DNA from: Escherichia coli | GTDB lineage: Bacteria; Pseudomonadota; Gammaproteobacteria; Enterobacterales; Enterobacteriaceae | Assembly: GCF_003334305.1 (NCBI RefSeq) | Contig: NZ_QOWS01000019.1 | Reading direction: 5' to 3' (one strand) | Length of the DNA stretch: 64,000 bases | Part shown: one piece after another, positions 56,640-64,000 of the stretch | Layout of the letters: every line of letters starts with the position of its first letter | Position numbering within the stretch: the stretch's first letter is position 1 | Program-made: the position numbers and the translations under genes | Notes under the pieces: generated by a model | The model's database searches: none | What the model was told of the DNA's origin: nothing | What the model saw: the letters and a program-made list of their open reading frames with translations, nothing else

Positions 56640-56770
56640 TTATAAAGAAAAATCAGCAAAAACTTGTTTTTGCGTGGGGTGTGGTGCTTTTGGTGGTGAG
56701 AACCACCAACCTGTTGAGCCTTTTTGTGGAGTGAGTTAAATTATTTACGGATAAAGTCACCAGAGGTGGA
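56640..56770 (+). other. oriT: Origin of transfer oriT with nic site (about 56682/56683 on the plus strand)
   Basis: Sequence tttttgcgtggggtgtggtgcttttggtggtgagaaccaccaacctgttgagcc matches the F-type nic/TraI-binding region as I recall it, including the inverted repeat tggtggtgagaaccacca. Confidence 0.7.
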
Positions 56771-56773
56771 AAA

Positions 56774-57283
56774 ATGAAAAAATGGATGTTAGCCATCTGC
56801 CTGATGTTTATAAATGAGATCTGTCTGGCCACTGATTGCTTTGATCTTGCAGGCAGGGATTACAAAATAGATCCTGATTTACTGAGAGCAATATCATGGC
56901 AAGAATCCCGTTACCGGGTTAATGCCATCGGTATTAATCCGGTAACGGGATATGGCAGCGGACTGATGCAGGTAGATTCCCAGCATTTTAACGAACTGGC
57001 CCGCTACGGAATTAAGCCGGAACATATGACAACAGATCCCTGCATGAACATTTATACCGGTGCTTATTATCTGGCAATAGCATTTAAAAAATGGGGCGTC
57101 ACCTGGGAGGCCGTTGGTGCATACAATGCCGGATTCAGGAAAACCGAACGCCAGAACCAGAGGCGTCTTGCCTACGCATCAGATGTTTACCGGATTTATA
57201 CCGGGATAAAAAGCAGTAAAGGTATCCGGGTTCCGACCACGAAGAAATCACTTTCCCAAATGAACAGTGTGCAGAACAATTAA
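56774..57283 (+). CDS. Lytic transglycosylase (F orf169 / gene X, protein P19 family)
   Basis: 169-aa ORF with signal peptide and lysozyme-like catalytic region ([14 protein letters not shown] ... GLMQV); first gene of the leading region. Confidence 0.9.
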
Positions 57284-57310
57284 TATTGTATACATTGTCA
57301 AATACCGGTT

Positions 57311-57400
57311 ATGCCGCGACAGCGGCATGGAAGGCCACACACAAAAATATCATATGAGTGATAATGCTGACTGGCCGAAGCCCCGCAAAGCGGGAACCCA
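57311..57400 (+). repeat. Conserved hairpin module, copy 3 of 3 (candidate ssi on the transferred strand next to oriT)
   Basis: atgccgcgacagcggcatggaaggcc ... catatga ... gccgaagccccgcaaagcggg. Confidence 0.5.
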
Positions 57401-57544
57401 TATTATATATATCCGGTAACTGCGTAGCCTCCTGCCAGACCATTTTTCGCGGGCACAATATTTACAGACTACCGAAAAGCCAGTTGATGAAATTGAGGCA
57501 TATCAGACGACATAGCAATGCCGAAGGATGACAATATAAGTAAA

Positions 57545-57565
57545 GCCCCGAAAATTTTTCGGGGC
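57545..57565. terminator. Palindromic hairpin downstream of the leading-region gene at 57579-58400
   Basis: gccccgaaaatttttcggggc directly 3' of the minus-strand gene. Confidence 0.5.
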
Positions 57566-60861: not shown

Positions 60862-61295
60862 ACCTGACCTCCTTCCGCCATCAGGATATGGATGATGTCG
60901 TTAACGCTGTACCCCTGCGCATCCAGTGACGCCGCCAGTGCCAGTGAATGGCTGACTGCTTCCGGTGCAAACCGCCGCTGTACCTGAACCACCGCAAACG
61001 GCTCACCACCGGCATTCACCAGAACCAGCACCCAGACCTGGGAGACATCACCCGGTGAACATAACGCCAGGTGAAAACGTTCGTGGGCAGGCGTGAAACG
61101 GACCTGGACGGGGAAAAAGCCGCCGAACTCGCTGCCGTACTCGCCATTCATCGTCCAGTTGTCCGGCGCATCCAGTTCCCGCATCACGGCGTGTGTCAGC
61201 TCACGGCGTTCATCACTTCCGGCAGCCCTGATATCTTCATATTCCTGTGCGTTCATGGTCTGTAATACATTCAGGGTCAGTTCAGTTTTCATCAC
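60858..61295 (-). CDS. psiB: PsiB (plasmid SOS inhibition protein)
   Basis: 145-aa ORF; sequence as recalled for PsiB. Confidence 0.9.
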
Positions 61296-61346
61296 GGTAT
61301 CTCCCTTGCTGCTGCCCCGTCTCCGGCGGGGCGGTGTGGTTGTTCA

Positions 61347-63305
61347 TCAGGCGGCATCAGCCAGGTTATCGGTGCGTTCAGTGGTATCCGTCTGTGGATG
61401 TGGTGCACACATCCAGCCAGGCACCCAGCGGTTGTCTTTCATATGGTGCTCTGCATGTTCAGCCGCATCACCTTTCTTCATCTTCTCTGCATCCCGTGCG
61501 GCACCGGACAGTCCGGCATCATTCAGAGCTGCGATAATCTGCGGCTTTTTCAGGTGTCCGAAGAAGTTTGCTTTTGTCGGCTGCCACCAGTCACGCATGT
61601 GAAAACCGATGGCGCTCTCCAGCGTGTCCAGCGGGCTGCGTGACGTGTGACCACACTCGCGGGTCTGAACGCCGTGGATGCTGCACGCGGTGCAGAAACT
61701 GAGCAGGGATAACAGCACCTCCTGACTGAGTGACAGGAACGTCGTCATGTCCCGTGACCATCCCTCCGGTAACAGGGCCGCAAGACGGGCTTTTTCTGCC
61801 ATCATCGCCATGAACGCGGCACCTTCCTTCCCTGACGGCGCATCGCTGGTCAGCGAATAATGTTTACATTCCAGGCTGATTTGTGCTGGTTTACTGTACG
61901 CTCCGCTGCCAAACACATTCAGGCAGAGCGTCCATGCCAGCAGTGCCAGGGATTTGTCCGGTTGCTGCATGAGTGCCGCCTGGACTGCCAGCGTGCGTTC
62001 GGAAGACATTTTCGTCAGCAGTGGCAGACTGATTTCCTCCACTGATGCTTTCTCCTGCACCTGTTCCGTGCGGTCAGCGTCGTCAGCCGCGTCATCCTCG
62101 CTGCGCAACTGCACACCACGCTGGACACACACATTACCGTAACGCCAGGACACCACCACACCGCTTCCGGTACGCATCTCCGGCGTCCACGCTCTGACCT
62201 TCGCCATGCAGCGCATCAGCTTCATTTCTGCTTCCAGCAGGTCGGATTCCTCACACTGGTTTTCCAGCGCGTCGTAACGCGTCATCAGTTCGTTCAGGCG
62301 TTCTTCTTCCGCCTCCGTCAGCACCGCGTCCGGCTCCGGCAGACAGCGGTATGTTCCGGCATCCTCACGGCACTCACCGACAGGCTCCATGCGTCCGGCG
62401 CACCATTCCCAGCCTTCGGCTTCCCGAAGGTGTTCAGCGACAGCCTGGAGTTTTTCCAGCAGGGCAGCATCGAGCGCCACGCGGTCGACATAACCGTCCC
62501 CGTCATCGCTGAACAAATCAGTACGCAGTTCGTCAGGTGAGAAAGCATCAGCCCCCACGAAGCGGAATTTACTGTTCCCCGCCACCGCCACTTCACTTTC
62601 CGTAATCAGATTGCGGATAACCCGCACATCCGGTTTTCCGCCCCATCCCGACTGACAGGCGGCTTCAAACACCTGTACCTGACGCGCGGTGTCGTTCTCC
62701 AGCGCCAGCGCCTGACAGTGTTCGGTAGTGATGCGGTCTTCTGCCAGCGCATCGAGGATGACAGGCGCAAGGTCAGCCAGTTTCAGCATTCGCTGGACAT
62801 AGCGGGGTGAATAGCCCAGCAAATCACCGATTTGTGCAGGTGTTTTGCCTTCCTGCGCCATTGCGCGGAATCCGGCAATCTGTTCAGCAGGGTGCATATC
62901 CCGACGATGACCGTTTTCAGTCATTGATGCCGCCGTCGCCAGCTCCTGCGGAATGACCTTCACACGGACAGGCCAGTCAGCCGGAATGATGCCACGCTCT
63001 GCCAGCATGTTGAGTGCAGCCAGTCGGCGACCACCTGCGGCGACACCGTAACGGTCACCAGGCAGGGTATGCACGACCAGATTCTGCAACAGGCCAACGC
63101 CCTTAATGGACTCCGCCAGTTCGCTGACAGACTCCGCAGAATACGGCACCGTGCGCACATTCAGTGGTGATTTAATCAGTGAGGCCAGCGGCACGCTCAC
63201 TTCCGCCGTCTGCGCCAGCAGGGCAGACAGGGCAGTCTCCTGCTCTTTTGACGGTTTACGGCTGGATTTACGCTCCGTTTTTGTCTTAGACTCTGTAACC
63301 GACAT
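61347..63305 (-). CDS. ParB-like nuclease-domain protein of the leading region
   Basis: 652 aa from ATG 63305; N-terminal ParB/Srx-type motif (GVAAGGRRLAAL) and HTH region; function of the C-terminal two-thirds unknown. Confidence 0.8.
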   Translation of the reverse strand: MSVTESKTKTERKSSRKPSKEQETALSALLAQTAEVSVPLASLIKSPLNVRTVPYSAESVSELAESIKGVGLLQNLVVHTLPGDRYGVAAGGRRLAALNMLAERGIIPADWPVRVKVIPQELATAASMTENGHRRDMHPAEQIAGFRAMAQEGKTPAQIGDLLGYSPRYVQRMLKLADLAPVILDALAEDRITTEHCQALALENDTARQVQVFEAACQSGWGGKPDVRVIRNLITESEVAVAGNSKFRFVGADAFSPDELRTDLFSDDGDGYVDRVALDAALLEKLQAVAEHLREAEGWEWCAGRMEPVGECREDAGTYRCLPEPDAVLTEAEEERLNELMTRYDALENQCEESDLLEAEMKLMRCMAKVRAWTPEMRTGSGVVVSWRYGNVCVQRGVQLRSEDDAADDADRTEQVQEKASVEEISLPLLTKMSSERTLAVQAALMQQPDKSLALLAWTLCLNVFGSGAYSKPAQISLECKHYSLTSDAPSGKEGAAFMAMMAEKARLAALLPEGWSRDMTTFLSLSQEVLLSLLSFCTACSIHGVQTRECGHTSRSPLDTLESAIGFHMRDWWQPTKANFFGHLKKPQIIAALNDAGLSGAARDAEKMKKGDAAEHAEHHMKDNRWVPGWMCAPHPQTDTTERTDNLADAA

Positions 63306-63368
63306 ATATTTCTCCTTTGACCGGGATGGTTGTATGTCTGCCGGACGCATTCCCGTCCGGCACCTCTC

Positions 63369-63602
63369 TTACTTAAGAATGCCGAAATCACGGATGGCAT
63401 GGTTCATCCAGTACCCGGCACCGTCCTCAAAATTCCAGGTACGCCAGACCATTGCACCGTTATTACGGACAACCAGGCGAAACTGTTCGCCGTGGTCATC
63501 CTCGATAAAGACGTTCCGGTACTGTGCGGCAACAGCTTCGGCATGTTTGCGGGTAAAAGGACCGTCAGGCAGCCCCTGAAGTATTCTGAAATATTCGCTC
63601 AT
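63369..63602 (-). CDS. Small hypothetical leading-region protein (start uncertain)
   Basis: ORF between ssb and the ParB-like gene; its 5' end overlaps the ssb reading frame as it stands. Confidence 0.45.
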
Positions 63603-64000
63603 CCTCATCTCTCCGGTGATGCCCCGCACAGGACGGAGCGGTTGTCACAGTCAGTCGTTCAGAACGGGTATCATCTGAAAACCCGTAATCGTCACTCTCC
63701 GGCGGTTGCGGCTGCGACTCCGGCTGCGTGGCCTTACGTCCACGGCCTTTCGTTTTTGCGCCTCCTTTTTTCGTACCGGCCTCCGCCTGTGGTTCCGGCT
63801 GAGACTGACCGCTGAACTGTTGCCCCTCTTCCGGCTGAGTCTGAGCACCTGCGACACGTCCCAGCATCTGCATGGTGCCCGTGGTCTTAACAAGAATTTC
63901 GGTGACGTAACGGGTGATACCGTTATCCTCCCAGCTACGGGTGCGAAGCTGACCTTCGATGTAGACCTGCGCGCCCTTGCGCAGATATTCACCTGCCACT
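63565..64000 (-). CDS. ssb: Plasmid single-stranded DNA-binding protein SSB, partial (5' end outside the window), with an apparent 3' frameshift
   Basis: OB-fold region ([23 protein letters not shown]), glycine/glutamine-rich linker and acidic tail; the frame reads ...SDDTRSERL... where restoring one base would give ...SDDIPF-stop at about 63659. Confidence 0.85.

Follow-up and report, generated by a model that had tools for sequence, protein, structure and literature searches.

Transcription of plasmid genes from single-stranded DNA (ssDNA) has a described basis in Frpo, a stem-loop that offers -35 and -10 boxes to RNA polymerase while the DNA is single-stranded and that also primes DNA synthesis (Masai and Arai, 1997, as summarised in PMC7690428). 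Early expression in plasmid F depends on two such elements, Frpo1 upstream of ygeA/ygeB and Frpo2 upstream of the genes from ssb to psiA (Couturier 2023; PMC9849209). Anti-defence, SSB, methyltransferase and toxin-antitoxin families enriched in leading regions occur exclusively in the orientation that makes the transferred strand (T strand) their template, and an anti-CRISPR gene protects F only when it lies in the leading region and in that orientation (Samuel 2024; PMC11541004). Recipient-specific RNA sequencing with 5' rapid amplification of cDNA ends found genes controlled by Frpo1 and Frpo2 to be enriched (Wen 2025; PMC12672017), and a preprint reports that the F leading region has four operons with ssDNA promoters, that ssp1a and ssp1b act as priming sites in vivo, and that a hairpin roadblock is resolved by UvrD (Fraikin 2026 preprint). 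Transcription on ssDNA that is silenced after conversion to double strands has been shown for F and pESBL only (PMC9849209, PMC12672017, PMC7690428). Here we analyse the leading region in a 64,000-nucleotide stretch of Escherichia coli contig NZ_QOWS01000019.1 (assembly GCF_003334305.1; hereafter the window), in which a hairpin at 58852-59170 is homologous to Frpo, and we conclude that its leading-region genes are very probably read from the incoming single strand by way of this class of promoter. Both the arrangement and the mechanism are already known, and their recognition here is a correct rediscovery of established biology: the principle was established for F and IncI plasmids in 1997-1999 and confirmed in vivo in 2023-2026, and the window provides one more near-identical example.

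The segment 56300-64000 is 100% identical to many IncFIA/FIB/FIC plasmids of E. coli and Salmonella, such as pRK100 (NZ_CP060383.1), and a colinear block covering at least 80% of it is present in at least 2577 plasmid records. Aligned with plasmid F, positions 56360-64000 show 94.7% nucleotide identity over 7.6 kb, colinear and without rearrangement. Judged by these matches, the interval is the part of the leading region proximal to the origin of transfer (oriT) of an IncF plasmid (FIA/FIB/FIC, pRK100/ColV-type). To the left of oriT, on the minus strand, lie traM, traJ with FinP, traY, traA and the remaining tra operon, and in the identical plasmid the leading region runs about 8 kb past the window end (coordinates beyond 64000 are window numbering extended through that plasmid). 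The leading region of F reads oriT - ygfA - ygeB - ygeA - Frpo1 - flm/hok - psiA - psiB - yfjB/herB - yfjA - ssb - Frpo2, and gene order and orientations are alike here, with YfjB 94% and SSB 96% identical. The two plasmids differ by a 1-nt deletion in the ssb of the present plasmid, through which the C-terminal IPF is lost, and apparently by a third class-1 hairpin copy deeper in its leading region, Couturier et al. listing Frpo1 and Frpo2 alone in F. As in the leading-region anti-defence islands of Samuel et al. (Nature 2024), the SOS inhibitors occur together with SSB and a toxin-antitoxin system, all templated by the T strand and accompanied by Frpo-type promoters; unlike those islands, the in-window part contains no recognised anti-restriction or anti-CRISPR gene, and ArdA-like and methyltransferase genes lie past the window end.

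The polarity of transfer follows from the nick site. The TraI recognition and nick sequence, GTGGGGTGT/GGTGC with the slash marking the nick, has an exact match on the plus strand at 56674-56687, between traM and the leading region, which identifies an F-type (MOBF) oriT with its nic site at 56682/56683. Plus-strand positions 56623-56742 match the published F T-strand oligonucleotides of TraI biochemistry: the 3' terminus of the '5'oriT60-mer', ...GCGTGGGGTGT (longer form ...TTTGCGTGGGGTGT), falls at 56682, and the '3'oriT60-mer' begins GGTGCTTTTGG... (longer form GGTGCTTTTGGTGGTGAGAACC...) at 56683. From traM to nic the sequence equals the F oriT except at two positions far upstream of nic. 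At nic TraI forms a covalent bond with the 5' phosphate, and it guides the strand into the recipient (PMC3074121); therefore the plus strand enters with G56683 first, as the 5' end of the transferred strand, and 56683-64000 follows in order. An earlier reading made from the DNA letters and their open reading frames alone (the sequence-only reading) had placed nic at this position on the plus strand and had that strand entering 5' end first, and both statements hold, the former through the ends of the F oligonucleotides and the latter through the nic match together with the linkage of TraI to the 5' phosphate (PMC3074121).

Downstream of nic, one protein gene up to the window end does not have the T strand as template: orf169 (gene X, ygfA, yubQ; 56774-57283, plus strand), a lytic transglycosylase gene, annotated as SLT domain or X polypeptide and with an IagB-like match. 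All other leading-region genes lie on the minus strand, and the plus, transferred strand is therefore their template. These are the genes for a 273-aa DUF932 protein (YubP; 57579-58400; Pfam DUF932, 2.8e-52) and a 95-aa protein (58519-58806; an open reading frame with an annotated coding sequence, the first downstream of the hairpin promoter); hok (59705-59866; NCBIfam Hok, 98 bits against a cutoff of 73; annotated 'modulator protein') and the overlapping mok (59709-59924, from the annotated gene map); psiA (60142-60861; NCBIfam PRK13704, 416.9 bits) and the SOS inhibitor gene psiB (60858-61292; NCBIfam PRK13701, 278.7 bits); the 652-aa ParB-like gene, orthologue of F YfjB/HerB (61347-63305; assigned by 94% identity to F YfjB and by Pfam); the 77-aa gene DUF905/YubL/yfjA (63369-63602; annotated coding sequence, PHROG 8779); and ssb (63565-64000, its 5' part off the window and its start at 64197 in the identical plasmid). 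The claim that every gene after orf169 is on the minus strand is thus correct for each gene that was named, the list having missed DUF905/yfjA, which is on the minus strand as well.

The predicted promoter is a class-1 single-strand promoter hairpin, a homologue of Frpo1, ssp1a and ssiD, on the plus strand at 58852-59170 (left arm 58852-59002, loop 59003-59010, right arm 59011-59170, with an 8-nt bulge, TTCATTTA, in the right arm at 59032-59039). Its identity to F ssiD (D90178.1) and to the F Frpo loci is 92-96%, and it belongs to a repeat in which the first ~350 nt of each copy show homology to ssi1-3 of ColIb-P9 and to F ssiD, the sequence characterised as Frpo. Set beside Frpo/ssiD, ssp1a and ssp1b of F, and ssi1-3 of ColIb-P9/pESBL, the element shows, in addition to sequence homology, a long imperfect T-strand hairpin with an A/T-rich stem beside the loop, the conserved CTGTCC/GGACAG helix, the conserved bulge and a position directly upstream of T-strand-templated genes, and we find no difference of kind. 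Folded as DNA, plus-strand positions 58840-59210 form 122 pairs at a folding free energy of -112.2 kcal/mol, and the wider 651-nt segment 58810-59460 reaches -164.8 kcal/mol (z = -8.5 against shuffles, T strand). A 300-nt sliding DNA fold of 52000-78000 with a threshold of -75 kcal/mol, as in Wen et al. 2025, placed only the three copies of the repeat clearly below the threshold on the plus strand; the segment 64901-65200 touches -75.1 kcal/mol on the complement only, and no further ssDNA-promoter hairpin was found by this fold in 52000-64000 besides 58841-59360. Over the hairpin the 300-nt segments go down to -92.5 kcal/mol on the plus strand and to -84 kcal/mol on the complement, and the plus strand is the more stable in every 300-nt segment that spans the hairpins.

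Covariation supports the stem, and wobble pairs point to the strand on which it folds. In an alignment of ten class-1 sequences (from this plasmid, F, ColIb-P9, Serratia and an insect metagenome), 95.4% of the cells in the central 33 pairs are paired, against ~45% when the partner is slid by 1-3 columns. Compensatory changes occur at 9 pairs, and the observed covariation was reached by 0 of 500 shuffles. The stem cells include 31 G·T combinations, which pair only on the plus strand, and 3 A·C combinations, for which pairing would be confined to the complement; it follows that selection has acted on the fold of the transferred DNA strand, not on that of the mRNA.

These observations are consistent with the following course of events. 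TraI would nick the plus strand at 56682/56683 and pilot it 5'-first into the recipient, where, for as long as it is single-stranded, the ~320-nt imperfect inverted repeat at 58852-59170 would fold into a stem that rebuilds a sigma-70 promoter. Host RNA polymerase would start in the hairpin and read the incoming strand leftwards, giving mRNA for the 95-aa and DUF932 genes, and a second copy, 215 nt past the window end, would likewise drive ssb, DUF905, the ParB-like herB, psiB and psiA. Synthesis of the complementary strand would then remove the hairpins and shut the promoters, leaving a brief burst of expression ('zygotic induction'), and the transcripts may also prime that synthesis; orf169, on the opposite strand, would wait for duplex DNA. 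Transcription of this kind would allow SOS inhibitors, anti-defence proteins and host-reprogramming factors to be made before host defences act. What this analysis itself contributes is strand polarity, gene orientation and, for the hairpin, homology to Frpo, position and covariation; we infer that a plasmid 94.7% identical to F would behave as F does. The proposal of the sequence-only reading that the incoming strand serves as transcription template before complementary synthesis is accordingly supported by template orientation, the Frpo-homologous hairpin and, by analogy, the published F results, and the RNA sequencing experiment that it had asked for has already been done (Wen et al. 2025; PMC12672017).

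The layout of the genes suggests two operons. A Frpo1-type operon would run from the hairpin, which adjoins the ribosome-binding site of the 95-aa gene, through that gene and DUF932 to a 14-bp perfect palindromic hairpin at 57540-57570, found by a terminator scan directly after the DUF932 stop codon and probably the terminator of this operon. The second would run from the copy past the window through ssb, DUF905, the ParB-like gene, psiB and psiA, which are tightly spaced and are followed by a weak terminator-like hairpin at 60110-60095. The 95-aa and DUF932 genes have the T strand as template and lie downstream of a predicted ssDNA promoter with no strong terminator between, and the same is found for ssb to psiA, with their promoter in the identical plasmid.

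A possible though unlikely alternative is that the hairpin serves mainly as a single-strand initiation (ssi) signal for priming complementary-strand synthesis, or as a replication roadblock, with expression of the downstream genes being incidental. The ssiD element was originally isolated as a single-strand initiation sequence, and RNA from Frpo primes Pol III in vitro (PMC7690428), yet priming and promoter functions are not exclusive. Early conversion downstream of ssp1a and ssp1b is rifampicin-sensitive in vivo, and another hairpin, ssp2, stalls synthesis (Fraikin 2026 preprint); against this, the protein output of the downstream genes depends on Frpo (PMC9849209), and each copy here stops right before a ribosome-binding site and start codon (58806 for the 95-aa gene; 64197 for ssb).

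Several points weigh against the conclusion that the genes of this plasmid are read from the incoming strand. The activity of the hairpin on ssDNA, the timing of expression and its dependence on Frpo are taken from the F literature and would apply to this plasmid by analogy. The promoter hexamers are ambiguous: a position weight matrix scan for -35 and -10 hexamers on both arms of the 10 class-1 sequences returned three candidates repeatedly, none of them clearly ahead, the best conserved being TTGAGA(58925-58930)-17-CATCAC(58948-58953) on the 5' arm with its -10 in an internal loop, and the alternatives TTGACG(58870)-17/18 and, on the 3' arm, TGGACA(59043)-17/18. Only one of the two relevant promoters is inside the window, that of ssb to psiA lying 215 nt outside. 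The hok gene lies behind the terminator-like hairpin at 60110-60095 and has a promoter-like site of its own of duplex type (TGGTCA-18-TATGAT, 60071-60042), and it may sit outside the ssDNA-driven burst. Finally, the shared orientation is not specific to the leading region within this plasmid. In the window 9 of the 10 leading genes are co-oriented (p = 0.02 against an even split), the ten genes amounting to only 3-4 transcription units, and in the gene table of pRK100 95 of the 123 genes of the whole plasmid are on the minus strand, including 34/34 tra genes; orientation in the leading region (16/19) was not different from that in the rest of the plasmid (Fisher p = 0.56).

These counts raise the alternative that the shared orientation reflects general co-orientation of the F backbone, through operon blocks or through co-directionality with complementary-strand synthesis, and carries no specific adaptation to ssDNA. 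Besides the tra genes, sopAB, the iuc and sit genes and the IncFII rep genes are oriented alike, and the tra genes are made only after duplex conversion in spite of their orientation (PMC9849209); orientation is therefore necessary, and not sufficient, for transcription from ssDNA. We nevertheless regard backbone co-orientation as a very unlikely explanation of the whole, since in F the deletion of Frpo elements abolishes early expression (PMC9849209), leading-enriched anti-defence, SSB and toxin-antitoxin families are exclusively so oriented across thousands of elements, and inversion of a reporter anti-CRISPR gene in the F leading region loses the protection (PMC11541004), while the covariation of the hairpin is strand-specific. 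The significance of the orientation thus rests on published comparative and experimental work. That the hairpin acts instead at the RNA level, as a structure in the 5' untranslated region of an mRNA and not in the incoming DNA, is extremely unlikely: a start on the 3' arm would put the hairpin complement into the transcript, and the complement folds well too, but the 31 G·T cells are valid only on the plus strand, against 3 A·C cells, and the plus strand is more stable in each 300-nt segment across the hairpins.

Among the proteins that would be made from the incoming strand, the 652-aa protein can be assigned. Across its full 652 residues it shares 94% identity with F YfjB, with the GGRRLAAL motif visible, and it has the composition of HerB (YfjB), as far as sequence can tell: an N-terminal ParB domain of CTPase type with a helix-turn-helix (Pfam ParB_N and HTH_ParB in residues 43-222), followed by a family-specific C-terminal part of ~400 aa. 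Its relatives in the PDB (ParB/Spo0J/Noc) cover the N-terminus only, and Pfam and PDB searches found no relatives for the remaining 430 residues. YfjB has been described as a CTP-binding, clamp-like relative of ParB, renamed HerB, which binds the chromosome of the recipient, reprograms transcription in the host and makes plasmid acquisition less costly (July 2026 preprint). The statement that the roles of the 652-aa and 273-aa proteins are not established consequently no longer holds for the former, and it stands for the DUF932 protein, which is still uncharacterised: this protein has no informative NCBIfam, PDB or PHROG match, its PHROG family being one of unknown function, and no paper in the literature collection searched connects DUF932 with leading regions. 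The 95-aa protein has no family match in NCBIfam or PHROG. By the order of gene names in F, the 95-aa gene would be ygeA and the DUF932 gene ygeB. Deletion of ygeA in F cuts conjugation to ~4%, and ygeB could not be deleted alone (PMC9849209); the DUF932 protein and its 95-aa partner thus appear important for conjugation in F (PMC9849209). A match to the sR2 small nucleolar RNA in Rfam at 57837-57903 did not reach the gathering score and was regarded as a chance match.

The hok genes form a type I toxin-antitoxin system of the hok/sok kind, with the Hok open reading frame and a conserved hok mRNA leader/Sok region at 59864-60036 (minus strand; Rfam RF01794, 92.7 bits against a gathering score of 59). 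The Rfam 'sok' match is in the hok-leader sense, on the minus strand, and the Sok antisense RNA, by definition on the plus strand, would not be makeable from the incoming strand. Expression of hok from ssDNA would need read-through past 60110-60095, and if hok mRNA arose in this way, the antitoxin would be briefly missing.

The ssb gene carries a 1-nt deletion relative to F, between 63668 and 63669, by which the terminal ...DDIPF gives way to ...DDTRSERL... with about 30 further residues, an extension of 34 residues in all, and the product has 210 aa compared with 179. The frameshift removes the partner-binding C-terminal SSB tip and brings ssb into overlap with the DUF905 gene. At least 1000 contigs carry exactly this 210-aa product, so that the allele is common and widespread; no ssb appears in the PLSDB table for pRK100, from which pseudogenes are left out. 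The tip-less SSB could be adapted to coat the incoming strand and recruit no host SSB partners.

The hairpin is part of a ~620-bp repeat (hairpin plus GC-rich module) present in three copies. The first, in the window on the plus strand (58824-59450), comprises direct-repeat families D2-D7; the second (64215-64840) begins 215 nt past the window end, 18 nt upstream of the ssb start codon, with a hairpin 87-96% identical to the window copy; and the third (67474-68097; 25175-25798 in the record of the identical plasmid), 3.3 kb beyond the second, stands upstream of a ydaB/DUF3560/methyltransferase operon. Compared with F (window 58824-59450 against F segments 10071-10622 and 15390-16015), the Frpo1-position hairpin shares 95.7% identity with F Frpo2 and 92.3% with F Frpo1, the orthologous site, and this closer likeness to Frpo2 suggests recombination or gene conversion among the copies. 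On the T strand each class-1 hairpin is followed by a GC-rich module of ~270 nt (59180-59450; 22290-22541 and 25550-25798 in the record of the identical plasmid), which lies outside the published ssiD/Frpo. Among the three copies the module shows 0-1 differences in 85 columns, while the hairpin arms differ, and structure prediction gives it an unremarkable fold on the T strand (z = -1.7) and a moderate one on the complement (z = -3.0). The module could act in cis as an element of its own, such as a site of binding or stalling; that it and the tip-less ssb allele are undescribed functional parts of the single-strand phase seems to us improbable.

At the nic-proximal end, the F counterpart of orf169 (ygfA) has 'orientation opposite' and is produced only after conversion to duplex (PMC9849209). 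Between orf169 and the DUF932 gene, on the plus strand at 57278-57466, lies a homologue of the single-strand initiation sequence ssiE, with 92% column identity to F D90180.1 in the same orientation and an unremarkable fold (z = -1.4). Priming from this site on the T strand would yield a copy of no more than orf169 and oriT, the one stretch with a gene that depends on duplex DNA. Each copy of the ~620-bp repeat also contains a small hydrophobic open reading frame, which in the window lies on the minus strand at 59282-59482 (66 aa) and in the other two at 22373-22552 and 25630-25788 of the record of the identical plasmid, with an identical C-terminus, ...FPGVPLAGRAVVNGASGAVSALAGFHP. Its homologues in the database number 216, some of them named 'transporter'. 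The differences between copies are not enriched at third codon positions (19:14:9 and 23:17:13), and the frame is therefore probably a by-product of a T-rich tract and not a gene.

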